From: Chiloscyllium plagiosum | Taxonomy: Eukaryota | Reading direction: 5' to 3' | Assembly (NCBI RefSeq): GCF_004010195.1 | Contig: NC_057718.1 | Location: 101,156,629-101,220,628, forward strand | DNA: 64,000 nt | Part shown: positions 6,071 to 63,007 of the stretch, one piece after another | Position numbering within the stretch: position 1 is the first letter of the stretch | Layout of the letters: every line of letters starts with the position of its first letter | Position numbers and translations under genes: made by a program | Notes under the pieces: model-generated | Database searches by the model: none | Told to the model about the DNA's origin: nothing | The model's input: the letters and a program-made list of their open reading frames with translations, nothing else

Positions 6071-6175
6071 ATTGGATGAATATATCCACAATGATGGACT
6101 GTTGGAGAGCTGGAGGTTATTGAACAGTTTAGCCTGTTTCTAGAAGCAAAAGTTTTAATTGCCCTTAATTGCTAG

Positions 6176-6380
6176 TCAGAAGTCACACAACACCAGGTTA
6201 TAGTCCAACAGGTTTATTTGAAATCACAAGCTTTTGAAACGCTGCTCCTTCATCAGGTGAACGTGTCAAAGGGGCAGCGCTCCGAAAGCTTGTGATTTCA
6301 AATAAACCTGTTGGACTATAACGTGGTGTCATGTGACTTCTGACTTTGTCCACTCCAGGCCATCACCAGCACCTTCACAT
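6176..6380. mobile_element. palindromic pLTR-type insert (family B), hammerhead cores decayed
   Basis: Arms CACACAACACCAGGTTATAGTCCAACAGG / CCTGTTGGACTATAAC; degenerate TSD CTTAATTGCTAG (6164) / CTTAATAGTTAG (6381). Confidence 0.8.
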
Positions 6381-8189: not shown

Positions 8190-8790
8190 CAAAGAAGGTT
8201 TTGTGAGTTGCTGTAGTGCTTTCTGTACGTGGTACATACTGTTGCCCCTGTGTGTTGAGAGGGATTGGGTCTTGGTCAAGCAGACTGCTTTGTCATAGAG
8301 CATAGGGGTGTAAAACACTGAAACAGACCCTTTGATCCAACCCGTCCATGCCGACCAGATATCCCAACCCAATCTCGTCCCATTTGCCGGCATTTGGCCC
8401 ATATCCATCTATACCCTTCCTATTCATGCACCCATCCAGATGCCTTTTAAATGTTGTAATTGTACCAGCCTTCACCACTTCCTCTGGCAGCTCATTCCAG
8501 ATGCACACCACCCTCTGTGTGAAAAAACTCCTCCTCAGGTCCGTTTTAAATCTTTCCCCTCTCACCTTAAACTTATGCCCTATAGTTTTGGATTCTCCTA
8601 CCCAGGGGAAAAGACCCTGTCTATTTACCCTATCCATGCCCCTCATGATTTTATAAGCCTCTATAACTCTGGAGCTTCGTGAGTGTTGTTGAGGCTGCCT
8701 TTATTCAGACAAGTGGGGAATATTCCATCACACTCCTGACTTGCACCTTGTAGATGGTGGATAGGTTTCTGGGAGTCAGTAGCTAAGCTT
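8190..8790 (-). mobile_element. decayed CR1/Crack-like LINE, split by a younger CR1 at 8293-8667
   Basis: Minus translation LTPRNLSTIYKVQVRSVMEYSPLV; continues as DKAVCL on the other side of the insertion. Confidence 0.55.
8293..8667 (-). mobile_element. CR1/HER1 3' end
   Basis: ORF 8293..8646 MRGMDRVNRQGLFP...FFTQRVVCIWNELPEEVV. Confidence 0.9.
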
Positions 8791-9490: not shown

Positions 9491-9704
9491 TGAAGATGGT
9501 CCAAGTGTGTAAGGAACAAAGAATGCCAATATTGACTTCATCTTGTCCCTTTATAGTAGGTTAAGTAGATCATTCCTGCACCCAGCCATCCTGTTTATTT
9601 TTTCTGTTGTCATAGAATCAGATCCTATTTCAATGTTTCATGACCAAAGGAAAGGATATTGCTTGTCTTTGTTTAAAAAAGATTGGAAGTGTTCAGATCT
9701 TTGC

Positions 9705-10255
9705 GTATACAAGTTGGGACGTCATATTGAGGTTGTACAGGATGTTGGTGAGGCCTCTTCTGGGATACTGTGTGCAGTTCTGGTCACCCCGTTATAGGAA
9801 GGGTATTATTAAACTGGAGGGGGTTCAGAAAAGATTTACCAGTAAGTTGCTGGGGACGGAGGGCTTGAGTTATAAGGAAAGGCTGGATAAGCTGAGCTTT
9901 CATTCACTGGAGCATAGGAGATTGGAGGGTGACCTTAATGAGATTCATACAATCACGAGGGTTATAGATAAGGTAAGTGGTAGGTGTCTTTTCCCTAGGG
10001 TGGGAGGAATTCAAGACTAGGGGCCATATTTTTAAGGTGAGAGGAGAGATATTTAAAAACACAGAGTGGTTTGTGTGTGGAATGAATTTCCAGAGGATGC
10101 GGCACAGTTACATTTGAAATACATCTGGATAAGTTTGTGAATAAGAAACGTTTGGAGGGATATGGGTGCAGGCAGTGGGACTAGTTTAGTTTGGGATTCT
10201 GGTTGGCATGGACTGGTTGGACCGAAGGGTCTGTTTCCGTGCTGTATGACTCTAT
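9705..10255 (+). mobile_element. CR1/HER1 3' end
   Basis: SWDVILRLYRMLVRPLLGYCVQFWSPRYRK in ORF 9640..10020; tail ...GCTGTATGACTCTAT. Confidence 0.9.
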
Positions 10256-11529: not shown

Positions 11530-13492
11530 TGGATTCAAGATGGCGGCAGAGTAGCAGCGCACTGGACAGGTTCCTTAGCCCGGAGCTCATCCACTCCATT
11601 CGCTGCTTTTTTTCTTTCTTTGCCTTTTTTAATGTCTCCAGTGATCATCAAAATTAATCTTTTCACGGCTTCAGCAGAAGGCTTCTCCTGCCCCAGCGAC
11701 CAGGTGGCTTCCAGTGGCCCAGTGTGGTAGTCTTGTCCCGGTGTGGTGCTCTAGTCCTGGTGTGGTGGTCTTGTCCCAGTGCGGTAGTCTTGTCCCGGTG
11801 TGGTGCTCTTGTCCTGGTGTGGTGGTCTTGTCCTGGTGTGGTGGTCTTGTCCCGGTGTGGTGGTCTTGTCCCGGTGTGGTGGTCTTGTCCCGGTGCGGTG
11901 CTCTTGTCCCGGTGTGGTGGTCTTGTCCCGGTGTGGTGGTCTTGTCCCGGTGTGGTGCTCTTGTCCCGGTGTGGTGGTNNNNNNNNNNNNNNNNNNNNNN
12001 NNNNNNNNNNNNNNNNNNNNNNNNNNNNNNNNNNNNNNNNNNNNNNNNNNNNNNNNNNNNNNNNNNNNNNNNNNNNNNNNNNNNNNNNNNNNNNNNNNNN
12101 NNNNNNNNNNNNNNNNNNNNNNNNNNNNNNNNNNNNNNNNNNNNNNNNNNNNNNNNNNNNNNNNNNNNNNNNNNNNNNNNNNNNNNNNNNNNNNNNNNNN
12201 NNNNNNNNNNNNNNNNNNNNNNNNNNNNNNNNNNNNNNNNNNNNNNNNNNNNNNNNNNNNNNNNNNNNNNNNNNNNNNNNNNNNNNNNNNNNNNNNNNNN
12301 NNNNNNNNNNNNNNNNNNNNNNNNNNNNNNNNNNNNNNNNNNNNNNNNNNNNNNNNNNNNNNNNNNNNNNNNNNNNNNNNNNNNNNNNNNNNNNNNNNNN
12401 NNNNNNNNNNNNNNNNNNNNNNNNNNNNNNNNNNNNNNNNNNNNNNNNNNNNNNNNNNNNNNNNNNNNNNNNNNNNNNNNNNNNNNNNNNNNNNNNNNNN
12501 NNNNNNNNNNNNNNNNNNNNNNNNNNNNNNNNNNNNNNNNNNNNNNNNNNNNNNNNNNNNNNNNNNNNNNNNNNNNNNNNNNNNNNNNNNNNNNNNNNNN
12601 NNNNNNNNNNNNNNNNNNNNNNNNNNNNNNNNNNNNNNNNNNNNNNNNNNNNNNNNNNNNNNNNNNNNNNNNNNNNNNNNNNNNNNNNNNNNNNNNNNNN
12701 NNNNNNNNNNNNNNNNNNNNNNNNNNNNNNNNTCCCGGTGCGGTGCTCTTGTCCCGGTGCGGTGCTCTTGTCCCGGTGCGGTGGTCTTGTCCTGGTGTGG
12801 TGCTCTTGTCCCGGTGTGGTGCTCTTGTCCCGGTGTGGAGGTCTTGTCCCGGTGTGGAGGCCTTGTCCCGGTGTGGAGGCCTTGTCCCGGTGTGGTGGTC
12901 TTGTCCCGGTGTGGTGCTCTTGTCCCAGTGCGGTGGTCTTGTCCCGGTGCGGTGCTCTTGTCCCGGTGCGGTGGTCTTGTCCTGGTGCGGTGGTCTTGTC
13001 CTGGTGTGGTGCTCTTGTCCCGGTGTGGAGGTCTTGAACCGGTGTGGTTGTTTTGTTCCGGTGTGGTGCTTTTATCCCTATTGTGGTGGTCTCGTCCTGA
13101 TGTGGAGGTCTCAACCCTTTGTGGAGGTCTTCTTCGCTTTTGGCTTCCAGTTATTCCAGCAGCCCAGCAGGTGATCTTGACCAGGAGTGGCGGTCTCAGC
13201 CTGGCATGGCTGCCTACTTCAGTGGAGGCTTCTGGCCTAGGATTCCGGCAATCCGTCTTGTCCTGGCTGCATTTTCCAGGTATTGCGTTGTTCCTTAAAG
13301 TGCTTTCCCCAAGCCCAGGGGCCAATGACTGATCTGTGATGAACTTTGTCTTAATTTTACTTTTTTTAGTTATCATGTATGACTTCTGTCATTAATATAG
13401 GCGCTGTGGTGTGGCGATTTAAAACTTTTCAGTATTTTTCATGGAGGAATACACATGATAATAAATCTCTATTCTGTTTCTATTCTATTCTA
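11530..13492 (+). mobile_element. putative non-autonomous retroelement with Rex/Babar-like tail, containing a minisatellite
   Basis: CAAGATGGCGG head at ~11537; tail AAAACTTTTCA...GATAATAAATC followed by (ATTCT)n. Confidence 0.45.
11718..13130. repeat. 19-bp GC-rich minisatellite (TCTTGTCCCGGTGTGGTGG) spanning N gap 11979-12731
   Basis: Direct tandem units on both sides of the gap; 19-aa periodicity in translated ORFs; degenerates toward 13130. Confidence 0.95.
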
Positions 13493-16730: not shown

Positions 16731-16794
16731 GGTTCTGTTTGGCTTATCTCTTTATCTGAAGACAGATCTATTTTCAGCATTGCTTCGCCTGAGG

Positions 16795-16836
16795 TCCACT
16801 GAAGATGTTACCAGGTAAGGTAACGAAACGTCTGGA
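16795..16836 (+). ncRNA. minimal type-I hammerhead ribozyme motif (family H)
   Basis: TCCA-CTGAAGA-T-GTTACC-AGGTAA-GGTAAC-GAAA-CGTC-TGGA; perfect 4-bp stem I and 6-bp stem II. Confidence 0.8.
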
Positions 16837-16997
16837 AATGACCCTTTTAGCTCAGCGAGCAAACCTACATCCATGGATCTGTCAATTGGGGATTCTTGGG
16901 CTGTTGCAATGTAGCCTTCTCCATTTCCGATCCTCCTTTTAGGATGGTGAGTTTTATGCAGAAAGTCTCTGAATCTCAAATAGCTACTTTTCCTTTT

Positions 16998-17123
16998 GCT
17001 ATAAATTCTGAGAGTTACAATTGTATCCCCCACAACCACCTGATGAAGGAGGGGCGCTCCGAAAGCTCGTGCTTCCAATTAAACCTGTTGGACTATAACC
17101 TAGTGTTGTGTGATTTTTAACTT
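16998..17123 (+). mobile_element. single-arm family B insert with hammerhead at 17037-17071
   Basis: CAC-CTGATGA-A-GGAG..CTCC-GAAA-GCTC-GTG followed by CTGTTGGACTATAACCT. Confidence 0.8.
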
Positions 17124-17689
17124 TTCTAAGGCAGGTTATCTAGTCTGCTACTGCTCTTGTTTGCCATATCCTTATGTTCCTCTCTCATACAAATCCAAAA
17201 TCTTTTATATGTACAAATTGGGTCGGGTGGCCTTTCCCTGAATGTGTTGCTGGCTTGGTGTCTCCAGTAAAGCAACTTACGTTCTTTGCATTGTCCCCTA
17301 CTGTAGGCATTCTCCTTTCTTTGCAATGCAGTCCATCCAAAATGGTCAACATATAAACGTTTGGCCAGTCAATAATTAATATTTTGGATAACATTGTTGT
17401 AAGACTTTTTTTTGGGTTGCAAGTGGTCCTGTAGAACCCTTGGCAATTGCAGCTGCTCTGTCAGTGTTGCCAAAGCCAAGAGATTTTCAACTGTGTCTTC
17501 TGTGCAGGATATTTAGTTGGGAGTGAGTAAAAGTGGACTATTTCCTAGCACTGCCCTTGGGAAGGGGAAGGAACCAGCAGCAGCTGGTTGCAAAGGACAA
17601 AAGAGGTGAGGGTATAGGATGCCTTATTGTGGGTCTTCCACAAGGGAAGGTCCAGCCACAGTCTGTGGTTACTGGCCCTCTGCCACCAG

Positions 17690-17950: not shown

Positions 17951-18029
17951 TTTGTAACCTCATACGGTACAAAGTGCATCACAATAGAGTGCACAGTGGA
18001 AGCAAATCACTGCAGCTGCTGGTGGAAAC

Positions 18030-18165
18030 AGCACTGAAAACAAAAAGTGCTGGAGGTCACACCAGGCCAGGCAGCATCAGAATCATCTAGACTCGAAAAG
18101 TTGGCTTGGTTCCTCTCCACGGATGCTGCCTCATCCACTGTGATCTCCAGGTTTTTTTGCTTTCA
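18030..18165. mobile_element. degenerate family D palindrome
   Basis: CTGAAAACAAAAAGTGCTGGAGGTCAC...GACTCGAAAAGTT...GTGATCTCCAGG. Confidence 0.6.
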
Positions 18166-23059: not shown

Positions 23060-23190
23060 TAATTTGGAGATGCCGGTGTTGGACTCGGGTGGACAAAGTT
23101 AAAAATCACACAACACCAGGTTATAGTCCAACAGGTTTAATTGGAAGCACCCACTAGCTTTCGGAGCCATTTTTGTGTGATTTTTAACTT
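23060..23190. mobile_element. family B palindrome with deleted centre
   Basis: 12-bp TSD TTCATATTGTAA at 23048-23059 and 23189-23200. Confidence 0.8.
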
Positions 23191-24410: not shown

Positions 24411-24921
24411 CCACTATGAGGGAGGGTTTCACAGAGGGGTGTGGGGAGGTGGGGGTGGGTGAGACTGTGTCAAAGGCGAGAGGCTGAGAGATGTTTCCGA
24501 GCAGCAGAAGCTGTCAGCCTTCGAGGGCAGCAGGGTCCGGGTGAGGACCGTGTGGTGGGAGTTTCACAGCTACAATTTGTCGAGCTCCAACTCAGCAATA
24601 TCTTACTATCACTCTGACAGCCACCCTGAACTGAACTCATTTATATACCAGTCTGCTCCCTCACTAGTCAATGCTTTGCGTGTTGTAGCACCACAACCGT
24701 GGGTGGAGGGGGAGAGGCAGTGGGTGACATGCATTCCAAGATGGTTCTAGCTGTAGAGAGCCACTCTAAATAGAATTACTTTCTGTAGATAACTTCTACG
24801 AAGTCGGTCATAAGCTAGCTCGCTCTCTCGTTGGCATAGAGAACGTGAACCACTGGAACAGTCCCTAGGGCCCATCGTGTCTGTGCCAACAACATTGATA
24901 TTCTAAACGAATCCCATCTGC

Positions 24922-25532
24922 CTGCATGTGGTCCATATCTGTATGTGTGTGTGTGCGCATGAATGCATGTGGTCCATATCTGTATGTGTGTGTGCGTGTC
25001 TGTGTGTGTGCATGCATGTGGTCCATATCTGTGTGTGTGTGTGTATGTACGCATGCATGTGGTCCATATCTGTGTGTGTGTGTGCATGTGGTCCATATCT
25101 GTGTGTGTGTGTGCATGCATGTAGTCCATATCTGTGTGTGTACGCATGCATGTGGTCCATATCTGTGTGTGTGTGTGTGCGCGTGCATGTAGTCCATATC
25201 TGTGTGTGTGCGCATGCATGTGGTCCATCTCTGTGTGTGTGTGCATGCATGTGGTCTATATCTGTGTGCGTGCATGCATGTGGTCCATATCTGTGTGTGT
25301 GTGTGTGTGCGCGCATGCATGTGGTCCATATCTGTGTGTGTGTGTGTGTGCGTGCATGTAGTCCATATCTGTGTGTGTGTGCATGTGGTCCATGTCTGTG
25401 TGTGTGTGTGTGCGCATGCATGTGGTCCATATCTGTGTGTGTGCATGTGGTCCATATCTGTGTGTGCGCGCGCGCGCGTGCACATGCATGCATATGGTCC
25501 ATATCTGTGTGCGTGCGTGCATGTGGTCCATA

Positions 25533-25568
<36 letters not shown>

Positions 25569-25740
25569 CATGCATATCTGTATGTGTGTGTGCATGTGGT
25601 CCTTATCTGTGTGTGTGTGTGTGTGTGTACGCGTGCATGTGGTCCATATCTGTGTGTGTGAGTGTGTGTGTGTGTCTGTGCATGCATGTGGTCCATATCT
25701 GTGTGTGTGTGTGTGTGTGTATGTGTGCGCGCGCGCGCGA
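24922..25740. repeat. compound VNTR: GCATGTGGTCCATATCT core plus variable (GT)n, about 22 units
   Basis: Direct reading of the units. Confidence 0.95.
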
Positions 25741-26061
25741 CGCTTTTCATTGAATGAATAGGAGAGAAGTTGAGAAGGAGAGTAATCTCAGCCAGTGCAG
25801 GAATCAAACTAACGTCATTGGCATTATCCCATGTCACAAGTGAGCCATCCAACCAACTGAGCTCACACAGTTTTAACATGATAAGCAGAGCTCTTTTCTC
25901 ATTATATCCCCAATGGATTTTAGTGCCCGTCTTCCATTCTTCTAACCCACCAGTGTGGCATTTCAAATTCCATCCCGACCATGGACTGATAGAATGAAAC
26001 AATGCATTGCTTCAAATGTTAGTTATTAAGTAATTGGTAAAATTGTGTAATCAGAACGGGG

Positions 26062-26390
26062 AAATGGTGGCATACTGGCAATGTCATTGGATGAGTAATC
26101 CCAAGTGCCCAGGCTAATCTCAATTTAAATTCAATGAATAACAATCTGGAATTGAAAGCTCATCTCAGTCATGGTGACCATTAAATTATCATTGATTATT
26201 GTGAAGCCCTTTCTGGTTCTCCCAGTGTCTATCAGGGATGGAAATCTGTCATCCTTATATGGTCTGACGTCCATGTGACTCCAGGTCCACAGCAATGTGG
26301 TTGATTCTTAGTGGCTTGGCAAACCACTGCGTTCAGGGGCAACAAATGTTGGCCTTTTCAGTGGCACCAAATCCCATGAAAGAATTGAAT
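26062..26390 (+). mobile_element. SINE family B
   Basis: CCATGTGACTCCAGGTCCACAGCAATGTGGTTGATTCTT core. Confidence 0.7.
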
Positions 26391-26476
26391 AGAAAGATGA
26401 AGGGGGTTTTAATGGCCATGAAACTGAAGCCTCAGTTCAGGGAGTTTGCGTTACACTATTGGCATTGTGTACAGTG

Positions 26477-26607
26477 AGGAGAAAGTGAGGTCTGCAGACG
26501 CTGGAGATCAAAGCTGAAACTTTATTGCTGGAACAGCACAGCAGGTCAGGCAGCATCTAGGGAACAGAAGATTCGACGTTTCGGGCACATGCCCTTCTTC
26601 AGGAATC
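26477..26607 (-). mobile_element. single-arm family A insert
   Basis: 11-bp TSD TGTGTACAGTG at 26466-26476 and 26608-26618. Confidence 0.85.
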
Positions 26608-26608
26608 T
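26569..26608 (-). ncRNA. minimal type-I hammerhead ribozyme motif
   Basis: AGATTC-CTGAAGA-A-GGGC-ATGT-GCCC-GAAA-CGTC-GAATCT; perfect 6-bp stem I and 4-bp stem II. Confidence 0.82.
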
Positions 26609-27857
26609 GTGTACAGTGTACAGTGTACAGTGACGCAACCTGTTCTGCTTATGCTTGTAGAATCTTCACTCAAATGGCTTACATCTTCCAACTTTGGAAG
26701 AATGACCAAAAAAGCAATGATCCATCCATTGTTATTATCACTGGAAATATGGAGTGTTAATCACACTGTGTTGTACAATGATAGAGTTCACCTCATATGA
26801 GAAATAGTCAAAAACGTAGAAAGCAGGGACAGGATTGGGCCATTCGGCCCTTCTAGTCTGCTCCACCATCCAACATGATGGGTGATCATCCAGCACTATA
26901 ACCTGTTTGTGTTTTCTCCACATACCTTTTGATCCCTTTAGCCCGAAGAACGATATCTGTATCTTGAAAATGAAACGGTACTCAAGTTCCAGTACCTCAG
27001 AGCTCACATTTAAAAGGACTTTTCATGCAGCAAGCTCAGGCGTCATTGACATGTAGTCCACTTTTTGTCAAATGTTACTGTTACAAATTTTCACGCCTAG
27101 TTTGAAAAAACTGAGGGGAGGAAAAGCATTGTGAATATTTTATTTGAGCGAGGGCTTGTAATTTTATACTCTTGCAAGGTTAAAGACTTATGAGTATACA
27201 TAAGGTAATGCAATAAAGATTTGTTTAGTTAGGTGTTGACCTCAGAGCTATATTGTCACTGATGAAATAAAGTACCCTTTCATTTGTGTCAAATGAAATT
27301 AAGGAATCTTTTAGATGTGTGGACTATTGAAAACAAACTATTGCTTTGTGACCAAAAAAGTGAAAGAATGTTAATTTAGTAGTGAGTAGAATATCTTGGC
27401 TGGATTAGATTGGTGAATTTAAATAAACTGGTTGTTGACATGAAGGTTTCAGGTTACATTATACAATGGAATAATGTGGGTTTGCAGAAAGAATGTGAAG
27501 TATTCTCTGAATTGAAATGTAATCCATCATGACACATTCGTAATGAAATTCATAGAGACCTTTGGTAAATGGCATCAAAGTCAAATGCATCTTCTGGTAA
27601 CAAAGTGAAATTCTGTCAAGTTATCATCTAACACTTCGGGTCAGTTTCATTACTTGGCCTGAATGCTCAAGGCGAGATTTGGGGCTTTCCTGGCTGAGGT
27701 ACCCTTCAAACCCAAGAAATAGCTGTTTTCTCCCCCACCTCCAATCCCTCCCTGTTTACCCACAGTTGGACTCCATTGAAAAAGGGAATTTAGATTTATG
27801 ACATATGGAAGATATCTTCACTTACAAAGCAAAGATTGTCATCAGCAATGAGGAGCA

Positions 27858-28360
27858 AGTCATAGAGATGTATAGCACAGAAATTGGTCCAACTCATTCA
27901 TGCTGACCAGATATCTAAATTAATCTAATACCCATTTGCCAGCATTTGGCCCATTTCCCTATAAACCCTTCCTATTCATGTACCCATTAGATGCCTTTTA
28001 AATGTTGTACTTGTACCAGCCTCCACCACTTCCTCTGGCAGCTCGTTCCATACAGGCACCATCCTCTGCATGAAAAAGTTGCCCTTTAGGTCCCTTTTAA
28101 ATCTTTCCCCTCTCAACTCAAACCTATGCCCTCTAATTTTGGACTCCCCTACCCTGGGGAAAAGACCTTGTCTATTCACCCTATCCACTCCCCTCATGAA
28201 TTTATAAACCTTCATAAGTTCAGCCCTCAGCCTCTGATGCTTCAGAGAAAATAGCCCCAACCTATTCAGCCTCTCCCTATAGCTCAAACCCTCAAAGCTT
28301 GGCAACATCCTTGTGGTAAGTGTTTTCTGTACCTTTTCAAGTTTCATAACATCTTTCCTG
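27858..28360 (-). mobile_element. CR1/HER1 3' end
   Basis: ORF 27976..28398 YRKDVMKLEKVQK...FFMQRMVPVWNELPEEVVEAG. Confidence 0.9.
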
Positions 28361-29269
28361 TATTCTCTATGTTCTGCACCCTCCACAATTCCAACCATGC
28401 AAATATAAACTGTTTCTGTTTTTCTGTAACTTGTATACAGTGGTGCTTTTTTTTAACTTGCCTTACTTGCTAATTGCAATACATCTCTTTGTTCTGAAAT
28501 ATAACGTAATTAAAAGTTTGGCAAGTTGGATATCAGAAATTACTTTCCGTTGTCTGATCTGTATTGTTTCCTATCTTAACAGGAAATTAAGCTGCAGGTT
28601 CTCTTGCATGCTATTTTTACCTCAAAATAAACCTCTTTGTTGTTGCATGCGTTTTATCTTATATCTGTAACGTCCTACAAATCTAAGCTTCATTTTCCAG
28701 CTCCTTGAAGTGAATGATGTATACATAAGCCACTAGTTCTCAGTTAAAACGCTTATTTCTTTGAGAAATAACTGTTGCCATCTCATAGAGACTAACTTTT
28801 TTTATAAAAATAAGAAATCTGAAATCCCAGTTTGTTAGTCGAAGAATGAAGCCACAAGAGAAATTTTGCTATAGAAGAGTCAAACAACACCAACATGAAA
28901 TTCTAACTTAGTCTCCTGTTTTCTAACATCCAAAGTCAACAGTAGTTAAATATGAATTAACAGGAAAATTGTGGTCAATTATAAACTATGAATTGTGCAT
29001 TAAATTGCAGATATGGTCAAATCAGATCTTACGAATTGGCTTGGCGAACCCCTGACCAAGCATGTTATCAATATCAGTCCTTCAAAGCCATCTCCTCCTT
29101 GAGGAAGATTTTTAAACTTCTCCTCTAGAATGTTGTCTGATCCCCAGTGTTGATGAAATTTGTTGATCAAATGATCTTTTCCATTAATACTCAGGTGCTG
29201 GAGCACTAAACAGCGAAATGGTACACTTTTGAAGTTTATTTGGCTGAATGTGAAACTTAAAGCCCTCTT

Positions 29270-30058
29270 AGGCTGGGACTGTTTTCCCTGGAGGGTTTGA
29301 GGCTGAATAGGCTGGGATTATTTTCCCTGGAACATCGGAGGCTGAGGGGTGACCTTACAGAAGTTTATAAAATCATGACGGGCATGGATAGGATAAATAG
29401 CCAAGGTCTTTTCCTTGGGGTGGGAGAGTTCAGAACTAGAGGGTGTAGGTTTAAGGTGAGAGGAGAAAGATTTAAAAGGGTCCTAAATGGCAACTTTTTC
29501 ACACAGAGGGTGGTGCGTGTATGGGCTGAGCTGCCAGAGGAAGTGGTGGAGGCTGGTATAATTACAACATTTAAAAGGTTAAAAATCACACAACACCAGG
29601 TTATAGTTCAACAGGTTTAATTGGAAGCACTAGCTTTCGGAGCGACGCTCCTTCATCAGGTGGTTGTGGAGGACACAATTGTAAGGCACAGAATTGCTAT
29701 AAATTCTGATGAAGGAGCGACACTCCAAAAGCTAGTGTGCTTCCAATTAAACTTGTTGGACTATAACCTGGTGTTGTGTGATTTTTAACTTTGTACACCC
29801 CAGTCCAACACCGGCATCTCCAAATCATAACATTTAAAAGGCATGTGGATAGGTATATGAGTAGGAACGGTTTAGAGAGATAAGACCATAAGACATAGGA
29901 GTGGAAGTAAGGCCATTCGGCCCATCGAGTCCACCCATCATCTGGACTCCCTGGTCATCAGGCCAAATGCTGGCAAAAGGGACTAGATTGGTTTAGGATA
30001 TCTGGTCAGCACAGTTGAGTTGGACTGAAGAGCCTGCTGCAGTGTTGTACATCTCTAT
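29270..30058 (+). mobile_element. CR1/HER1 3' end with nested inserts at 29579-29828 and ~29882-29935
   Basis: [18 protein letters not shown]...VVEAGIITTFKR; resumes after the TSD. Confidence 0.9.
29579..29828. mobile_element. family B palindrome; intact minus-strand hammerhead at 29628-29662
   Basis: 13-bp TSD AACATTTAAAAGG (29566-29578, 29829-29841); CAC-CTGATGA-A-GGAGC-GTC-GCTCC-GAAA-GCTA-GTG on minus. Confidence 0.88.
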
Positions 30059-32006: not shown

Positions 32007-32619
32007 GTAGTAATGTCACACCACAGAATTTGTCACTGAGTCGCTTGTGGCATTGTTGAGATGGATGTGGCCAAAAGCTTGACAAAACTCTAAGTCTTAA
32101 AGATATTTTAAATAAAAGTACAGAGGCTGAGAGATTAAGGGGTGGAATTCTGGTGCCTAGGGTGCAACAGGTCAGGAGTAGAGGAGCACACCCTCTTGGA
32201 GGTTCGTGGGAGTTGGAGGAGATTGAAGAGAACCTTGAAGTGAATTTTGAAAGCAAGGATGAAAATTTTAATATTGAGCCATTGCTGGACTAGGTGCCTG
32301 TATGCATCATTGAGCATAGGGAAACAGAAAATGCTGGTGATCACAGCGGGTCAGGCAGCATCCATGGAGAACCCAGCAAACTAACAGCTCAAGTCAAGAT
32401 GGCTCGTCAGAGCAGAGGGATGAACAGAACCTGATCCGAGTAAAAACAGGGACAGCAGAGATTTTGGGTGATTTTAAGGGTTCCACGTTAATGCAGGTAG
32501 AATGTTGTAGGTCTGCCAAGGGAATGTTGAATTAAGTTATTCTTCCTCATCTACTACATCTCCAAATCCAGAGCTGCTTGGTCGTACACAATATGAGTGT
32601 TGCTAAATAAAGAGACGGG

Positions 32620-37044: not shown

Positions 37045-38135
37045 TTCTATAGAGTCAGACAGTCATACAGCATGAAAACAGACCCTTCAATCCAACTCGG
37101 CAGGTCTGGAAGCATCTGTAAGGAGAGAAAAGAGCCGACGTTTCGAGTCTGACTGACCCTTTGTCAAAGCTTTGACAAAGGGTCAGTTAGATGCGAAACG
37201 TCAGCTCTTTTCTCTCCTTACAGATGCTGCCAGACCTGCTGAGATTTTCCAGCATTTTCTCTTTTGCCTTCAATCCAACTTGTCCACTCCAAATCATGTT
37301 TCCAAACTGAACTAGTCCCCCCTGCCTGCGTTTGGCCCGTATCCCTCCAAACATTTTTTTTTCATGTACTTATCCAAATGTCTTTTAAATGTTGTAACTG
37401 TACCTGCATTCACTCTTCCTCAAGGAGTTCATTTTACATGTGAACCACTCTCTGTAAAAAAAAATTACCCCTCATGTCCTCCTCAAAACTTTCTCCTCTC
37501 ACCTTAAAAAATATGCCCGCTTGTTTCAAACTCTTACACTCAAGGGAAAAGGGGCATGGATAATGCTATTCACATTATCCATGCCCCTCATGATTTTATA
37601 AACCTCTATAATGTCACCCCCTCAACCTCCTACGCTCCAGTGAAAAAAGTCCCACACTATCCAGCTTATTTTTATAACTCAAACCCACCATTCCTGGCAG
37701 CATCCTGGTAAATCTTTTCTGACCCTCTCCAGTTTAATAATATCCTTCCCGTAACAGGGTGATCAGAACTGGACACACAAGCGGCCTCACCAATGTCCTG
37801 TACAACCTCAACATGGCATTCCAATTGCTGTACTCAAAGGTCTGAGCAATGAAGGCAAGTGTTCTAAACACCTTCTTAACCACTCTGTCTATCTGTGATA
37901 CCAACTTCAAATAACCCCTGGGTGTCTCTGTTCTACAACAGCATCCAGGGCCCTACCATTAAATGTGTAAGTCCTGTCCTTGTTTGTTTTGCCAAAATGC
38001 AGTACATCACTTTTATGCAAATTAAACTCCATCAGCCCACGGACCCAATTGATCAAGACCCCTTTGTAATCATAGATGACCTTCTTTACTATCCACTACA
38101 GCACCAACTTTGGTGTCATCCACAAACTTACTAAC
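37045..38135 (-). mobile_element. CR1/HER1 3' region
   Basis: HER1 tail, RT C-terminus, and TTTGGTGTCATCCACAAACTTACT (SKFVDDTK on minus). Confidence 0.88.
37098..37266. mobile_element. family C palindrome with U3-A8 hammerhead variants
   Basis: 14-bp TSD CCTTCAATCCAACT (37084-37097, 37267-37280); symmetry axis at AGCT 37168-37171. Confidence 0.85.
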
Positions 38136-42142: not shown

Positions 42143-42600
42143 GGCTGAAAATGTGTTGCTGGAACAGCGCAGCAGGTCAGGCAGCATCCAGGGAACAGAA
42201 GAATCGACGTTTCGGGCATAAGCCCTTCTTCAGGAATGAGGAAAGTGTGTCCAGCAGGCTAAGATAAAAGGTAGGGAGGAGGGACTTGGGGGAGGGGCAT
42301 TGGAAATGCAATAGGTGGAAGGAGGTCAAGGTGAGGGTGATAGGNNNNNNNNNNNNNNNNNNNNNNNNNNNNNNNNAGTGTTGAGCCACATGGTGGTTGG
42401 GTTGGTTGGTCCGGGTGTCCCAGAGGTGTTCTCTGAAATGCTCCGCAAGTAGGCGGCCTGTCTCCCCAATATAGAGGAGGCCACATCGGGTGCAGAGGAT
42501 GCAATAGATGATGTGTGTGGAGGTGCAGGTGAATTTGTGGCAAATATGGAAGTTTCCTTTGGAGCCTTGGAGGGAGGTGAGGCGGGAGGTGTGGGGGACA
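42143..42600 (-). mobile_element. Penelope-like element 3' fragment: GIY-YIG endonuclease plus pLTR with hammerhead (42202-42237)
   Basis: Minus frame FHICHKFTCTSTHIIYCILCTRCGLLYIGETGRLLAEHFREHL; downstream ATTC-CTGAAGA-A-GGGC-TTAT-GCCC-GAAA-CGTC-GATT; N gap at 42345-42376. Confidence 0.88.
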
Positions 42601-42852: not shown

Positions 42853-43814
42853 TCATAGAGGTGAGCAATTCTTCTACTGTTACAAGTCTTGTCACAAGTT
42901 CCCAATGAAAGCCGCATTTAGTAGGCAGAACTAAATACAGCAAGGCCTGTTGTCAGCAGCAATTGCTGCTTAGAAAAGACATTGTCCTGCCACATGCCTT
43001 TAGCAACCTGCTTATTGTGCCGTGTCATATTCCACTGTGGAGTGGTCCAATGCATTGGCAAACTAATGTACTGCCCCTTGGAGAGGATTTCACCTGAAAC
43101 GTTCACTTCTGCACCTCCAGATGCTGCCTGCCTTGCTGTGTTCTTCCAGCCTCCTGCCTATCTGCCTTAGGTGTATTGGGGCAGAGATGAGATTCTCATT
43201 ATGTAGTAACCAATGTGTTTTTATAAACACAGAGATTCTTGAGGGGAGAAATGTAAATTCCATCAAAGTGCAACTGAACCCCCATCGACCAACAGAAAAA
43301 TAATAGTGGAGGGAATCAGAACAAGGCATTTAGCTCTTTCGTCTCCTCAACTCTACCACCCTCTCTGATCTCTGCACTTCTTCAAATGTGATTGTGTTCA
43401 CATATTAGTTTTCATCATTCCAACATTACAAGGTACTCAGCTGCAAGCTCTGGATTGATCTCTCTAAACATCTCTACCTTTCTTTATCTATCTACCTACT
43501 CCTCTCTCTCCTTCCCTCTCTCTCTCTCTATCTCTCTCTTTTTGTGTTCTCCTGTAAGATGCTCCTGGACACTTGGATTTTCGATCCAGCTTTTGGTTGG
43601 ATCACCTGATGTGGCTCAGTCTGAAGTTGTGTTTGGTAATGGCTACACTGAGGTGCCTTGGGATTTTTTTTCAGGTTAAGAGGTACTTGATGAATGCAAG
43701 GTTTACTAGTGAACTAGTGTTCTGATAGTAAGGACTGGGAGAAGAGGGGAGAGCTGAAAGTTCACCCCTCTTTCTGCATCATTACATTGGCCAACATCCA
43801 CCCCTCAATCAACA

Positions 43815-44850
43815 CGGAAACATAGAAAAGGAACTGGAGTAAGCCGTTCAGCCCTATGAGTCTGCTATACTATTCTGGTCATCCAACTCAGACCCCTGTT
43901 TCCACTTTCTCCTCATACCCTTTGATCCCTTTATCCCCAAGAACTATATCCAACTCCTTCTTGAAAACATTCAATGGTTTGGCTTCAGCCACTATCCATG
44001 GCAAAGAATTCCAGAGGCTCACCACTCTCCTAAATGAAGAATTATTTCCTCATCTTGGTCCTAAACGGCCTACCCTGTATCCTTAGACTATGACCCCTGG
44101 TTCCGGACTCCCCAGTCATCGGGAACATACTTCCTGCATTTACCCTGTCTAGTCCTGTTCGGATTTCCCCCCCCCGCCCCCCGCCACTTGTTCTAAAGTC
44201 CAGTGAATATGGTCCTAACTGATCGATCCTGTCTTCATACATCAGTCCTGGTAAACCTTCATTGTGCACTCTCCATAGCCAGAACATCCTTCCTCAGGTA
44301 AAGTTAAAAAGCACAAAACACCAGGTTATAGTGCAACAGGTTTAATTTGAAGCACTAGCTCACTCCATAACCACCTGCTTCCAATTAAACCTGTTGGAAC
44401 TATAACCTGATGTTGTGTGATTTTTAACTTTGTCCACCCCAGTCCAACACCAGCATCTCCAAATCATTCCTCAGGTAAGGAGACCAAACTTACATACAGG
44501 ACTCCAGGTGTGGTATCACCGAGGCCCTGCCAAATTGCAGCATGATAGCCCTGCTCCTGTACTCAAATCCTCTCATTCTGAAGCCCACGTCTCCTTTGTC
44601 TTCCTCACGGCCTGCTGTCCCAGGTTGTTTATTTTGAGTGACTAGTGTACAAGATCACCACAGCCTCATTGCACTTTCCCTTTTCACAATCTACCTCCAT
44701 TCAGATCATAATCTGCCTTGGTATTTGCGCTGCCAAAGTGGATAGCCTCACATCTATTCAGCTTTTACTTCACCTGACATGAACTTTCCCAATCGCTCAT
44801 ATTGTCCAAATTACACTGTAGCATCCGCCTCACAGCTCACCCTCCCACCC
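43815..44850 (-). mobile_element. CR1 3' region with family B insert at 44302-44466
   Basis: ORF 44042..44287 GLDRVNAGSMFPMTGESGTRGHSL; 12-bp TSD TTCCTCAGGTAA (44290, 44467). Confidence 0.85.
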
Positions 44851-46637: not shown

Positions 46638-46860
46638 AGAGCAAATTACTGCAGATGCTGGAATCTGAACTGAAAACAAAACATGCTGAAGATCACAGCG
46701 GGTCAGGCAGCATCCATGGAGAGAGAGCAAGCTAAGGTTTTGAGTCTAGATGACACTTCATCAGAGCATGAAGGGTCATCTAAGACTCGAAACCTTAGCT
46801 TGCTCTCTCTCCATCGATGCTGCCTGACCCGCTGTGATCTTCAGCATGTTTTGTCTTCTA
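46638..46860. mobile_element. family D palindrome, decayed hammerheads
   Basis: Arms GATCACAGCGGGTCAGGCAGCATC / GATGCTGCCTGACCCGCTGTGATC; centre ATGAAGGGTC..GACTCGAAAC. Confidence 0.8.
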
Positions 46861-47339: not shown

Positions 47340-47935
47340 GATGGCCTAGTGGTATTATCGGCAGACTGGTATTCCAGAGAGCGAAAGTGAGAACTGCAGA
47401 TGCTGGAGATCAGAGTCAAGATTAGAGTGGTGCTGGAAAAGCACAGCAGGTCTTTCAGCATCCGAGGAGCAGGAGAATTGACGTTTCGGGTAAAAGCACT
47501 TCATCAGCAATGAGCCCATCCTGATGAAGGGCTTTTTGCCCGAAACATCGATTTTCCTGCTCCTCGGATGCTGCCTGACCTGCTGTAATTTTCCTGCAAC
47601 ACTCTAATCTTGAAACTGGTAATCCAGAGATCCAGGTAATATTTTGGGGAACTCTGGTTTGAATCTCACCATGACAAATGATGGAATTTGTAATCAATGA
47701 AAATCTGGAATTATGACTCTAATGATGATCATGAAACAATTGTCAGGAAAAACCCATCTGGTTCACTGATGTCCTTTAGAGAAGGAAATTTCCATCCTCA
47801 TCCTGGTCTGGACTACATGTGACCCCAGACCCACAGCAATGTGGTTGACTCTTAACTGCCATCTGGGCAATCAGGGGTTGGCAATGCTAAATGCTGACCT
47901 AGCCAATGATGCCAATCCTGGGAGTTAAAAAAAAG
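47340..47935 (+). mobile_element. SINE family B with family A' palindrome at 47381-47614
   Basis: TSD ACTGGTA(T/A)TCCAGAGA (47365, 47615); core ATC-CTGATGA-A-GGGC-TTTTT-GCCC-GAAA-CATC-GAT. Confidence 0.85.
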
Positions 47936-50490: not shown

Positions 50491-51809
50491 GGTGCATGGA
50501 AATATTTTGTTTTTGTTTTCCCCTCTGAGTGCTCTGTGCATGGATTCCAAAGCCATGACCATTACTACGTGGGAACGACACTGCCTGCGAGTTTGTCACA
50601 TAGCGTTCTGACCTGGAACTGTGCTGTTCCTTCAGTGTTACTGGGTCAGAATTGTGGAGCTCCCTACCTAACCGCACTGTCGGTCTAGGACTGCAGTGGT
50701 ATCTGAAGGAAGCTCACCATCACCTTCTCTGGGGACAGGGAAAAGCCCTTCACCTGGACAGCTGCATCTGTGAATGAATGAAAATAATCAATTTATGTTT
50801 TTAAAAAAATTGGAAGGAAAATATCTCAAATTGATAACGTAGTAGTTTGAGCATAACAAATCTTTCCAAAGATTTGACAGCAGGAGATATTGCGCCTGAT
50901 TCTCAAATCGTCCTCGTTTTGGAACCATTTTGAAAGCTGAGATAATGATCCTGGAGGTCACTCTGATGTTTCTGGGACAGTTTGACATTTTCAAAGGGTC
51001 AGTGCGAAATGGAATACAGATCTCACATGCTGCCAGTTAATAGTGCATGGGAAGGTTGTTAGGGGCCCCACGCAGTGATGTCTTACCCTTTTTTACAGAA
51101 AACACTGGTTTACAGTAGTGTCCAGCTGCCTGCGTCTTCCAGGGATATTTCTTTTCATGGTTTGTAGAACTGGAACCCCGTGGACAAAATGTGCTAGGTC
51201 AATTGCTGTGCCTTCACATCACGTTCACGGCCACCCTCCCCCCATCTGAACTTTTTGGACTCAAAATGCTAACTCTGTTTCTCTCTCCTTCGATGCTGCC
51301 AGACTTGCTGAGCTTTTCTGTTTTTGTTTCCAACATCCAGTATTTTGCTTTAGTTTCTCCATCTCATGTTCTGCCGCTCCCTCTGAGTGGCTGCCTCCTC
51401 CTAGAGTAGTATAGAAACTGGCCCTTCGGCCCACCATGTCTAGGCTGACCAGCAAACACCAAGCTGCACGAATGCCATTTACGTAGCCCTGGCATTTTAA
51501 GTACTCATCCGGTTGTTTCTTCAATGTGAGAGTACATGCCTCTACCATCCTCTCAGGCAGCGCATTCCATATTTCTACCATTCTCTCGGTGAAAGAAATG
51601 TTTTTCACAGATCTCCTTTACACCACTCGCTCCTTGTCTGAAATATCGGCCCTCTGGTCTTAGACAAGTCTGCCATGGGGAAGAGATGCTCATGATTCTC
51701 AGCAAGGAAGTGGCAGCTCCCAACATGGCCACTGCCCACCTTTGCACTGACCTCGGGCAGGGAGCTCCCCACCTCCATGAGGCATTTGGCACCTCTGGTT
51801 GAGCACCAG

Positions 51810-53786: not shown

Positions 53787-53963
53787 TCAGAAGTTAGGGC
53801 ACCAGGTTATAGTCCAACAGCTTTATCTGAAATAACAAGCTTTGGGTAAACCTGAGGAAAGGTCAGCGCTCTGAAAGCTTGTGATTTCAAACAAACCTGT
53901 TGGACTATAACCTGGTGTGGTGTGTCTTCTGACCCCAGTCCAACACCGGGCACCTCCACATCA
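53787..53963. mobile_element. family B palindrome, decayed
   Basis: CACCAGGTTATAGTCCAACAG / CTGTTGGACTATAACCTGGTG arms. Confidence 0.75.
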
Positions 53964-55867: not shown

Positions 55868-56780
55868 TTCATAGAGTCATAGAGTCATATAACATGGAAA
55901 CAGACTCTGTGGTCCAACCAGTCCATGCTGACCACAATCCCAAACTAAACTAGTCCCACCTGCTGGCTCCCGGCCCATATCCCTCCAAACCTTTCCTATT
56001 CATGTACTTATCCAAATGTCTTTTAAACATTATAATTGTACCCACGTCCACCATTTTCTCAGAATGTTCACTCCATATTCGAGCAAACCTCTGTGCAATA
56101 AATTCGCCCTCATGTCTTTTTTAAATCTTTCTCCTCTCACGGCTCCCGGCCCATATCCCTCCAAACCTTTCCTATTCATGTACTTATCCAAATGTCTTTT
56201 AAACATTATAATTGTACCCACATCCACCATTTTCTCAGAATGTTCACTCCATATTCGAGCAATCCTCTGTGCAATAAATTTGCCCTCATGTCTTTTTTAA
56301 ATCTTTCTCCTCTCACCTTAAAAATGTGCCCCCTAATAGTATTGTGATATGACATTGTTGTACTATCTCTATCTTTTTGTATTTTGGTATTTTTTTAATA
56401 TATAGTTGTTTTGTAAAATATTTGAAAAAGATTTAAATAAAAACATGTGTATAAAAAATAATGTGGAGAGAAGACAACTGCTACTAACTCTATCTATACC
56501 CCTCATTATTTCATAAACTTCCATCCAGTCACCTCTCAACCTTCTACGCTCCAGTCCAGCCTACCCAACCTTCCTTTATAACTCAAAGTCAAAAATCACA
56601 CAACACCAGGTTATAGTCCAACAGCTTTCGAAGCACTAGCTTTTGGAGCACTGCCCCTTCATCAGGTGGTTGTATAGTCTATGGAGAATTTATAACTCAA
56701 ACCCTCCATTCCCAGCAACATGCTGGTAAATCTCTTCTGAACTCTCTCTAGCTTAATAATATCCTTCCTATAACAGGTTC
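55868..56780 (-). mobile_element. CR1/HER1 3' end with 176-bp tandem duplication and family B arm at 56588-56688
   Basis: (ATAGAGTC)2 tail; TSD TTTATAACTCAAA at 56575 and 56689. Confidence 0.88.
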
Positions 56781-57225: not shown

Positions 57226-57428
57226 GCGAAAGTTGGGACTGGAGATCAGAGTCAGGATTAGAGTGGTGCTGGAAAAGCACGGCAGGTCAGGCAGCATCCG
57301 AGGAGCAGGAAAATCGACGTTTCGGGCAGGATTCCTGATGAAAGGCGTTTGCCTGAAACGTCGATTTTCCTGCTCCTCGGATGCTGCCTGACCTGTTGTG
57401 CTTTTCCAGCATCACTCTAATCTTGACT
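57226..57428. mobile_element. family A' palindrome inside L2 remnant; hammerhead at 57331-57366
   Basis: TSD CTGAAG(G/A)AG(G/A)TTACAGG (57209, 57429); CTGATGA-A-AGGC-GTTT-GCCT-GAAA-CGTC. Confidence 0.82.
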
Positions 57429-58075: not shown

Positions 58076-59505
58076 ATGGACGCAAAGTCTAATTCAGCCT
58101 CAGTTATTTGCTAGGGAGTCACCCAAAGGATGGCATCTCTGACAGAGCAATACCCCTCCAGTGCCCCACTGCAAATGGGAACTGGATCCACAACCTTTGA
58201 ATGCAGCCCCTTCAATGACACCACGGAAGTACATCATTGCTGCCAATGATGCTGCAGCCTTGTGTGTGCAGCCAGTGAGTATAGAGTAAAGAGCTGATGA
58301 CCGTTGATTGGAATGAGGTTGTTTCATGGCCTGGCAGGAATTCAGACAGGAAAGGAAATATGGGAAGAATTAGTGATGGGATAATTTGCATCTTAATGAA
58401 GCCCGATTTTATTGTTCAAGTTATCTTTCCTGAGTAAATCTCCATTTCTGAATGCAACAGACAAACATTACTGCAGCCAACACAACAGAACTTTGCCATT
58501 CACAGGAAAGATTAATGAAGCGTTCTGTTTTGCTGAATTTCTACAGTGTCTTATCTGTTGGCTGATTCCATGATGGCAGAATTGACAGCAGCTGGATTTC
58601 CACTGCGATTCTCTTCAACTTTGTTGCGTGAGATCAGCCAGGCTTTATCACTGCCCTTGTTTCTTTCTGCTTACCTTACTTTGAGTGCACACGTATGCGC
58701 TTTTCATTGGTTTTTGGATGATCTCCCAGCTTTCAATCTTCCAGTCAGCAGGCTTCTGATGCTAGGGAGTTTAAAAGGATCCTTAAGTACTTGCAAATTA
58801 TTGTTATGTAACTAAGATTCCCTTACAATCTCGAATGTAGCAGTAACGAGTAAAACTGCATTGACAGGAAAAGATAAAATTGGGAGAAAAGTTGCTCATT
58901 AAAATGCTATCTGAATTTTGAATTAGTGCATCTTGCTCCATTAGGCCATTGAAAAGCAGAAAATGCAACTGCCAACTAAAAAGTAAAATTACTCCTGCCA
59001 AAAATATTTTGAAGTGTTATAAAGCACCGTGTAACCTTATCTTTTCCATGTTGTAGAAACTCTTCAGATGGTGCTTAAAATATGGAATATATTTTCATTT
59101 TATTGTGATTACTTGAGAATCTTAATGTTTGGGTAAATGAGCTGTCATCCTTTGTGATTTAAGTAGCAGATTTGCATTTCTTTCGATTGTCTCAGAACAT
59201 AGTGATTTATTTTAATGCATACCACAAGCAATTCTAGTTGAAGATTTCCCCATTAAAAATTCCACACTTGTGCAACTGACACAGTTCCAAAAAACATCAT
59301 CAGGAAGGCAGTTGGACACAGTGTTCAAAATGTGACCAATTGAGTTGTGATATTCTTAGGAAGGCCAGTATAACTTGGCGGTGTATGGGTGGGTTATGGA
59401 TAGTGCCTTGCACCGAAGATATTGAAGATATTCAATTGTTACTACTCATTCCAGTGTGTACATTTTCCAAGAAGATGCTGCAGTAAAGTTGTCAACAGAA
59501 TTACA

Positions 59506-59664
59506 AAGTTAAAAATCACACAACATCAGATTATAGTCCAACAGGTTTATTTGGAAGCACTAGCTTTCGGAGCGCTGCTCCTTCACCAGGTGGTTGGGGA
59601 CTATAACCTGGTGTTGTGTGATTTTTAATTCTGTCCATCCCAGTCCAACACTGACACCTTCACA
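59506..59664. mobile_element. family B palindrome with partial deletion
   Basis: TSD CAACAGAA(T/C)TACA at 59493 and 59665. Confidence 0.8.
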
Positions 59665-61204: not shown

Positions 61205-61710
61205 CCTCAGCCAGGCCTGCAGGAGCCAACCTGACCTCCAGTCACCTCCCATGTTAATTCCCCTTCCCACTCCCTCTGACATGACCATCCTTGGCCTCCT
61301 CCATCGCCGCAAAGAATCAAACTGCAAACTGGAGGAACACCTCATCTTCTGCTTGAGCAGCCTACAGCCCAGATGACTCAACATTGAGTTCTCTTATTTC
61401 AAATAACATCCCCCCCTCCGATTCCCTTCGCAGCCCCGCTCCCTCCCTTCCACTCCTCCCAGCCACCTACAGGATTCATTCCTCCCATTAACCAACCAGG
61501 TTGTACCCTCTACCTGTCTTCACCTATCCCCACTTCACCACCCTGCCCCCACTCCACCCCCTTTATCTGCAGCTCACCTTTCACCCAACCCAGTCATGAA
61601 GTTACACCCAAAACGTTGACTTCTTCGCCTCCTGATGCTGCCTGGCTTGCTGTGTTCTTCCAGCCTCCTGCTTGCCCTCCTTGGATTCCGGCATCTGCAG
61701 TTTTTTTTTG
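61205..61710 (+). mobile_element. Penelope-like 3' fragment (ORF C-terminus plus pLTR) inserted in a DeuSINE head
   Basis: SDMTILGLLHRRKESNCKLEEHLIFCLSSLQPR*LNIEF; pLTR ..AAAACGTTGAC..GATGCTGCCTGG..GCATCTGCAG. Confidence 0.7.
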
Positions 61711-62728
61711 TCTCTAACTGAGCTAAGGCTGACAAGTAGGAGGCTGGAAGAACGCAGCAAGCCAGGTAACATCAGGAGGGGCAGAAGTTTTTATTATTGC
61801 AAAGTAACTGTTCGTATCACCGCAAAGTCTCTTCAAAGGACACCCATTTTTAGGAAATTCTCTGCCTTGTCTCTAACTGAGCTAAGGCCGACAAAATTCT
61901 AGAAACAAATTGGAAAAAGTTTTTTCAATGTTGGGCAAAGTTTATTGCAAATGTGAAACCTTGGAGTGAAGAGGATAAAACAGCTCCAACATGGAGACCA
62001 GTTCAATCAACAGTGGGACAAGAGCAACGAGGAACACATTGTGGAGCTAGCAGCTTCATTTTTTCCTCATTCCATAACTTTTCGGATCACGTTCAGCTTT
62101 TCTCTCTCTGCATCATGGATGCACGTGTGCAAAGGATGGAGGTGCGTTCGTTGTATGTGGTATCAGCCTGGGAAAACTCAGCTCCACCAGCAGCAGGAAG
62201 GCAGCCGATCTAATGTGAATTCCCCAGTTTCTGTCTGCAAGCGTGCAGAAAGCTTGGAAAATAGATCCCCACTGCAACCTTTTGCTCTTTCACTGAATAT
62301 GGATGATGCTTCAGCCTGAGGGGTGTGGAAACCTGAGAAAGCTGCTGTCCAAGCTGAACAGCAGAATCTGTTCAAATAACTACACCGTATTGTTCTGTGG
62401 CAAAATCACAGGGGAGGGGAAGCGCAAGCATACCAAAATGTTTTTCATTTTTGTTCAGCTCTTTTTATAGTGACATAATTTTATTTAAAATGCTCTTTCT
62501 TGTCTCGTGAAATAACTTGATTCCACAAGGGAAGGCAGTACAATTTGAGATGGCCGTAGCTTGCCAGAATATGGTTTGTGTGGGAAATGGGACTTGCCAG
62601 AGACTTAAAGATTTGGCCGGAGCATGATGGTCTTATTCTTAAGGCTTGTTTCTACCTGGTCACGTCATGACAAACAGTCAGGTCACATGCTGCATTATTC
62701 ATGCCCAGGTCAACAGTGATGTGGAGGC

Positions 62729-62878
62729 TGAAAATGTGTTGCTGGAAAAGCGCAGCAGGTCAGGCAGCATCCAAGGAGCAGGATTCTCCTGTTCCTTGGA
62801 TGCTGCCTGACCTGCTGCGCTTTTCCAGCAACACATTTTCAGCTCTGATCGCCAGCATCTGCCGTCCTCACTTTCTCC
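62729..62878. mobile_element. family A palindrome (ribozyme centre deleted) at the end of a family B arm (62882-63005)
   Basis: 15-bp TSD CAGTGATGTGGAGGC at 62714-62728 and 62879-62893. Confidence 0.85.
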
Positions 62879-63007
62879 CAGTGATGTGGAGGCGTCCATG
62901 TTGGACTCGGGTGGACACAGTCAGAGGTCACACAACACCGGGTTATAGTCCAATGGGATTATTTGAAATCACAATTTCAGAGCGCTGTCCCTTCATCAGG
63001 TGAACCT

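Follow-up and report, generated by a model that had tools for sequence, protein, structure and literature searches.

The hammerhead at 26569-26608 and the insert that carries it

The window (the whole 64-kb stretch of DNA that was analysed) carries on its minus strand, at 26569-26608, a minimal hammerhead of type I whose palindromic stem III has a zero loop; the letters and coordinates of the motif, as given by the initial annotation, held on re-reading. Along the sense direction (minus strand throughout), the motif opens with the 5' strand of stem I, which as folded has six bases including junction bases (26608-26603); the strand proper, AUUC (26603-26606), is element sequence by comparison with a long copy. 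The CUGAAGA catalytic box (26596-26602) follows, then a bulged A (26595, from sequence and fold), stem II with four G-C pairs and a 4-nt loop (26594-26591 with 26586-26583, also from sequence and fold), the GAAA box (26582-26579), and CGUC (26578-26575), where the palindromic stem III, ACGU, and the cleavage nucleotide C17 (26575) are located. The cut is predicted between 26575 and 26574, and the 3' strand of stem I (26569-26574) starts immediately past it.

Regarding its class, the motif has both catalytic boxes (CUGANGA and GAAA) and a UH cleavage site, stem II has the G10.1-C11.1 pair preceded by a bulged base, and the stem I coded by the element has 4 bp, in the 4-5 bp range of min-HHRs; stem III is cut down to its palindrome (ACGU, zero loop), as in the dimer type. 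The metazoan PLE pseudo-LTR min-HHRs, in the portion of PMC4209133 consulted, have the same boxes, bulged base and G10.1-C11.1 pair, together with the short stem I, the lack of loop 3 and the palindromic 15.2-16.2 positions, and occur mostly as dispersed single copies, with some opposite-strand pairs 100-700 bp apart; stem II instead has 4 bp in the shark family and 7-8 bp in the schistosome families. The same portion reports that min-HHR cleavage is absent in monomers and low in dimers (PMC4209133). The hammerhead should be a dimer-type passenger, predicted not to cut as a monomer.

As for the support for the motif, a minimal-hammerhead descriptor found 10 motifs in the window, against none in 100 shuffled versions built from 2-base blocks, and Rfam returned zero matches at its gathering score anywhere in the 64-kb window. 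Stem II is paired in 90% of the cells across 11 arms, with one pair changed on both sides. The 40-mer folds into stems I and II at -12.3 kcal/mol (z -2.4); folding of the whole insert gave a stability that was not unusual (z -1.5 and -1.05).

The insert itself (26477-26607) measures 131 bp, of which 130 nt (26477-26606, minus strand) are element-derived, namely a pseudo-LTR that runs from the position defined below as +1 to the tail end and is 76-91% identical to other copies in the window. Its last ~36 nt (26477-26512) are an optional tail, present on one arm only in head-to-head pairs, and the 3' end of this tail is the putative site where reverse transcription starts. The 11-bp TSD proposed by the initial annotation is exact, with 26466-26476 (plus strand), at the element 3' end, repeating 26608-26618 and present as a single copy in the empty allele; however, it is not a simple one, because the target DNA at the 5' junction (26608-26632, plus strand) adds to the TSD copy two 7-bp tandem repeats, 14 extra bases in all.

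Four of 24 listed sequence runs were mapped onto 26250-26850, three of contigs and one of poly(A) single-cell RNA. The empty allele was found in two of the three contig runs, one contig each, in another sample (from another study) of the same species and in a related species: the contigs join 26466 to 26623 and skip 156 bases (26467-26622), with 11 letters that fit either side. The third run, which may come from the same study as the window, has both filled junctions with 0 differences. The skipped length of 156 corresponds to 131 + 11 + 14, the last term being the two extra 7-bp target copies at the 5' junction. With one contig for each, the species is thus polymorphic at this site and the relative has it empty, which makes the insert young and still polymorphic. 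The claimed retro-insertion origin is supported and, taking PLE identity and real insertion jointly, the insert is almost certainly a real insertion of PLE type. Otherwise, a single insert of this kind is an ordinary polymorphic marker.

In all four runs, both ends of 26477-26606 rank among the six top loose-end positions. At the 26477 boundary, the flanks of the 3' end are AT-rich and the consensus continues the sense strand with AG in 3/3 contig runs; the tail end resembles a pyrimidine tract followed by AG, which may reflect a priming microhomology or a 3' splice site.

A family of Penelope-like elements

A search with an anchor gave 24 matches; 15 arms in nine loci were kept as family A, and nine arms from related families with other cores were left out. 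One copy is long (42144-42560, minus strand) and consists of a GIY-YIG fragment, an N gap, the upstream pseudo-LTR, the hammerhead and a short 3' end. The GIY-YIG fragment (42378-42560) lies directly upstream of the family pseudo-LTR, with 32 N between the ORF piece and the pseudo-LTR; it has a Pfam E-value of 0.003, below the curated cut-off, and an atlas score of 0.95, and it is 89% and 78% identical to two Chiloscyllium punctatum proteins. These relatives have RT motifs and, at the C terminus, a GIY-YIG domain, with Pfam matches below the curated cut-offs, and one of the two only has the CxxC linker labelled as Neptune type (PMC8557442, in the part used here). The PLE order of RT followed by GIY-YIG is found via the C. 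punctatum relatives, the RT itself being outside the window, and the hammerhead is in the pseudo-LTR after the ORF (42144-42560), as expected for a PLE. A tblastn search with the endonuclease fragment found no further PLE coding piece in the window.

The nine loci amount to about one per 7 kb of the window, and six of them are head-to-head pairs with the ~36-nt tail on one arm only; TSDs are 10-16 bp at five loci and 6-7 bp at two, and none was found at the remaining two. Head-to-head arms, one-sided tail and TSDs together constitute the PLE insertion signature, as set out in the available parts of PMC8557442 and PMC3846280: canonical insertions have an inverted 5'-truncated copy, a one-sided tail of 30-40 bp, into which the ~36-nt tail fits, and share with the present family the head-to-head arms, TSDs of 8-16 bp, palindromic junctions and promoter elements in the pseudo-LTR. 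The insert at 26477-26607 differs from them in that it is pseudo-LTR only, has one arm and a 5' end that is both sharp and shared, and comes with 14 additional bp of target repeats.

Similarities are also evident with PAc, the Poseidon PLE of Anolis carolinensis, for which the consulted part of PMC11167929 describes hammerhead catalytic mutants that insert normally, uncleaved RNA as the main template, and reverse transcription that begins within the RNA, at two sites that delimit the tail. The shark family appears to resemble it in the two start sites bounding the tail, the uncleaved main template and the dispensability of the hammerhead for insertion, and further in the AT-rich flanks (here from the loose-end consensus) and in both strands being nicked and extended. 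The two differ in that the present family has the Neptune-type CxxC linker, and that part of PMC11167929 reports no 5' boundary or start site at the hammerhead.

Non-LTR retrozymes, whose animal forms have been reported in one chondrichthyan genome, likewise have a type I hammerhead, are non-coding and are related to PLEs, according to the accessible text of PMC7229834 and bioRxiv 10.64898/2026.07.22.740005. Nevertheless, retrozymes are tandem hammerhead units of 150-450 bp, whereas the window copies are solo or inverted; their hammerhead is canonical, with a 6-bp stem I and loop-loop contacts, whereas the one found here is minimal, with 4 bp coded by the element; and the boundaries of the 131-bp insert are not set by the cut. 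A non-LTR retrozyme identity was ruled out by the solo 131-bp insert and the 4-bp element-coded stem I.

By all the features tested, and as judged from sequence, the family belongs to the EN+ PLE pseudo-LTR min-HHR class. The motif is of a known kind, a dimer-type hammerhead in a PLE pseudo-LTR; new here are the empty allele, the finding that the clean stem owes part of its pairing to the junction (see below), and the proposal of a start site. The portion of PMC4209133 consulted ascribes solo min-HHR motifs to truncated PLEs, with ends unmapped and sharks not named, and in the openly accessible literature searched, no mapping of solo min-HHR 5' ends to a start site was found. Pattern scans for further copies gave 0 and 0 matches in viral contigs and 0 in metagenomes; a shorter pattern then gave 48 loci, rejected by eye as chance matches with no hammerhead context.

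Other elements are present in the window. A PLE-type family with an AGCU palindrome and TATAAAT 32 nt before its proposed start has another minimal hammerhead and the same solo and inverted layouts (6150-6380, 16990-17125, 23060-23170, 29580-29830, 44300-44470, 53790-53950, 56580-56680, 59500-59630 and 62880-63250). A further minimal hammerhead at 16790-16840, with a longer stem II, has no relation to the two main families. PLE tail families that are related but older (37100-37270, 46650-46860, 61500-61720, 43090-43170, 51240-51320, 18000-18150 and 32330-32400) have the post-hammerhead anchor in common, with cores mostly decayed and several inverted pairs. The long open frames at 11645-13388 and 24815-26011 are low-complexity tandem repeats, one with a 754-N gap, and not genes; the frames at 8293-8700, 9616-10020 and 27976-28452 look like pieces from the 3' end of reverse transcriptases of, in our reading, CR1-type LINEs.

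The 5' junction and the ends of other copies

For the comparison of 5' ends, the A four bases before CUGA was numbered +1, which is 26606 in the insert and 42237 in the long copy. The boundary of the insert is located at the 5' strand of stem I, as the initial annotation had it, but the element stops at 26606: comparison with the long copy (42144-42344) assigns only 26606-26603 of this strand to the element, while 26607 is one added base (a sense-strand G) that comes neither from the target nor from the long copy, being either cap-templated or of snap-back origin, and 26608 is the first base of the TSD. This copy had been called the cleanest, and it is alone among the 10 motifs in having all six stem I pairs; two of the six, however, are owed to junction bases. 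The pairing probability of stem I is 0.75-0.99 with 26607 and 26608, 0.09-0.14 without them, and 0.0 in the context of the long copy. The clean stem I is partly a junction effect and hardly forms without these two bases.

The same holds for most family copies, in which stem I has 3 bp and a U-U mismatch and is unstable without junction bases. The mismatch occurs in the element-only stem I of seven of nine arms; a U-to-A change at 26572, unique to the 26477-26607 copy among the window arms, closes it. In organism A this variant accounts for 57-59% of the contig depth and in organism B for 5%, with mapping biased towards reference-like sequence; its frequency in organism A makes the change look like the mark of a young subfamily.

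The 5' ends of the 15 arms (nine loci of the window) fall at -3 to +3 in eight cases and inside the element, from +12 to +49, in six, and the remaining arm is long. Automated placement gave seven of 14 short arms at -3 to +2; the arm 47517-47613 was set in the +1 region by eye, as a 1-nt insertion broke the ungapped extension. The inside ends are at +12, +18, +20, +33, +40 and about +44 to +49, five of the six at inverted junctions, and zero of the 15 window arms end between -4 and -107. Against uniform ends over 156 positions, the clustering has a p of about 6e-7 per arm and 3e-4 per locus (six of nine loci). The initial annotation had proposed that copies end at the ribozyme; the map of truncation points over the 15 window arms agrees to the extent that the ends gather at the hammerhead's upstream edge and are not uniform, but the wall is on the far (5') side of the fold.

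The mapped runs also bear on this end. Position 26606 is among the six top loose-end rows in 4/4 runs, with a consensus that corresponds to the upstream pseudo-LTR; the agreement is 0.40-0.43 (50-86 contigs) versus 0.34 for pure flank, and 0.56 in 203 RNA reads. A mixture simulation places the contigs that continue upstream past 26606 at about 25-35% and the RNA reads at up to 50-60%, with the caveats that contigs collapse and under-count long copies and that the reference itself ends at 26606. Taken from the top rows of a list with 674 further rows, these loose ends support a population in which long copies coexist with others that end at +1, but do not amount to a histogram.

The latter figures weigh on the idea of a distinct non-autonomous family of SINE-like type, in which the 130-nt unit would be transcribed and mobilised anew on its own. 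The fixed 5' and 3' ends, the density of about one locus per 7 kb and the young subfamily with shared variants would fit it; yet the same sequence passes seamlessly into the upstream pseudo-LTR and endonuclease ORF, a quarter to half of the molecules clipped at 26606 continue into that pseudo-LTR, and tandem units are absent from the window, which leaves this explanation improbable.

The claim that the minimal mobile unit is the ribozyme plus its tail was not supported: six of the 15 inserted arms are without part or all of the core, and the TSD-flanked pair at 62727-62878 is coreless; the lizard PLE catalytic mutants that insert normally, in the consulted part of PMC11167929, also oppose it.

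The pair at 62727-62878, head-to-head with a 15-bp TSD and no hammerhead core, includes a plus arm (62779-62878) that begins at the predicted cut (+33), at a 2-nt microhomology; this arm is a candidate cDNA of self-cleaved RNA, and cleaved templates may exist. The same arm is what speaks for the insert at 26477-26607 being a copy of a ribozyme-cleaved retrozyme monomer or circle, an origin with next to no probability: the insert spans the cut site and has 32 nt upstream of it, whereas a cleaved monomer would begin at 26574, a position not among the top loose-end rows listed, and no tandem units are present. As the origin of 26477-26607, the cleaved monomer is contradicted by the insert's own sequence.

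Two further junctions deserve mention. The head-to-head pair at 2117-2346 has a 14-bp TSD, and both its arms end at +1/+2, with four of five junction bases matching a stem I snap-back. In 3/3 contig runs, at depths of 27-119, there are joints that link 26607 or 26608 to 26573 and include one extra A.

Origin of the shared 5' end

The insert probably ends where the element RNA begins, and not where the ribozyme blocks copying. The RT-endonuclease of a GIY-YIG PLE would nick the target with an 11-nt stagger, as the TSD suggests, and reverse transcription would begin inside the RNA, at the pseudo-LTR tail end; such an internal start is suggested by the two 3' ends 36 nt apart and by the part of PMC11167929 consulted. 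The RT would then run off the 5' end of an uncleaved transcript at +1, and a start at the tail of the first pseudo-LTR combined with a template end at +1 gives a cDNA of exactly 130 nt. Finally, one base would be added and the cDNA joined to the target with 7-bp slippage, in an order of events that is presumed while their products are visible in the sequence. We give this whole account, including the step at the transcript end (an uncleaved transcript starting at +1), about an even chance. The insert lacks the -31 box, so it is probably a dead-end copy.

This box belongs to a putative core promoter in the long copy (42235-42268, minus strand), composed of TTTATCT at -31 and a pyrimidine-A motif at +1, around 42237, which we take to be initiator-like from its consensus. 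A second family has the TTTATCT 7-mer at -30, with +1 set there by analogy, and the third family, that with the AGCU palindrome, has TATAAAT at -32 in its long copies. PLE start sites map within the pseudo-LTR in the text available from PMC2377424 and PMC8557442, and a TATA box and an initiator have been proposed for a rotifer pLTR in that from PMC3846280. Several points stand against a start at +1: TTTATCT is not a canonical TATA box; in the third family (TATAAAT), several copies extend 29-36 nt beyond the proposed start on its upstream side, and no more than two or three stop close to it, at junctions that are ambiguous; and the junction bases of two of eight wall arms fit snap-back (2 and 4 nt). 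In D. virilis Penelope, moreover, the start is at 371 and the intron end at 491, about 120 nt upstream of the hammerhead (PMC2377424 and PMC4209133, in part), so a layout with the start at the hammerhead is not general.

Regarding RNA, no pile-up of starts or ends was seen at the locus in the one fragmented poly(A) run, read at 2% and of low power; its 1368 reads on the locus come from both strands and 97% of them continue unlike the locus, as expected from other copies. A cap-templated G was not enriched past 26606 either in these reads (at most ~52 read letters, versus a depth of ~370 inside) or in the contigs, where depth past 26606 is ~15% or less.

The initial annotation had reverse transcription stopping at the ribozyme fold. 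An RT that copies 3' to 5' runs into a fold at the 3' foot, here about +33 to +38; the wall is instead at the 5' foot, where both stems are already copied, and the stem I coded by the element is weak, so a plain RT stop is weak as an explanation. What survives of the claim is its snap-back version. In this form of fold-dependent termination the RNA is longer and, after the 5' strand of stem I is copied, either the cDNA end snaps back on its own copy of the 3' strand or the RT leaves a protein-held ribozyme; synthesis would then stop at the 5' foot of stem I. The first base of stem I and the wall fall at one and the same position, the stems are often used by head-to-head junctions, and the added bases match snap-back for 4 nt in the arm 2251-2346 and for 2 nt in the 26477-26607 insert; the stem I-closing variant at 26572, common in organism A and rare in organism B on reference-biased mapping, points the same way. 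Conversely, six of eight wall arms are without snap-back bases, and in the arm 57330-57428 the added base is a G instead of the A predicted by snap-back, a G that may nonetheless derive from the partner arm. The element-only stem I has 4 bp, with U-U in 7/9 arms and a pairing probability of 0.0-0.14, the far stronger stem II takes just three of 15 ends, and a plain RT pause is expected at the 3' foot. On balance, termination of this kind is a serious contender but an unlikely one.

As for processing, the template 5' end could arise by 5'-3' exonuclease trimming down to a protein-bound ribozyme or by cleavage at -1/+1; either would likewise put the ends at the 5' foot of the fold and would account for the missing cap G. 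Hammerhead cleavage at -1/+1 is excluded by pairing, since there is no stem III or stem I partner, and the stem alone is too weak to stop a nuclease, which makes such an origin quite improbable. For the long copy, a 3' splice site ~22 nt upstream of +1 was also considered and rejected: it is missing from the RNA loose-end consensus and would not yield ends at +1.

Returning to a template that begins at +1, many solo minimal hammerheads may be complete cDNAs of the PLE 5' leader, made by an RT that goes from the tail of the first pseudo-LTR off a start four bases before the core, and not random 5' truncations; this generalisation is plausible, and we hold it a little less probable than its opposite. 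If the start is indeed there, it explains the abundance of solo hammerheads. The hammerhead would be the very first structure of the mRNA, a cut would remove a 32-nt capped leader, and the ribozyme could be a decapping switch on the element's own mRNA; the genome would then record PLE start sites as fossils and, for a minority class, cleavage events in vivo. The role of PLE hammerheads is described as an open question in the parts of PMC8557442 and PMC11167929 consulted. The family is still inserting in a living vertebrate at about one locus per 7 kb, which makes the 5' junctions of very many copies countable by class, namely +1 for a template start, +33 for self-cleavage and the stems for snap-back.

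Lastly, at 42144-42220 (minus strand), an ATG in loop II opens a frame of 26 codons that ends in the tail in consensus-like copies; the lizard PLE ORF likewise starts inside its hammerhead, according to the part of PMC11167929 used here.
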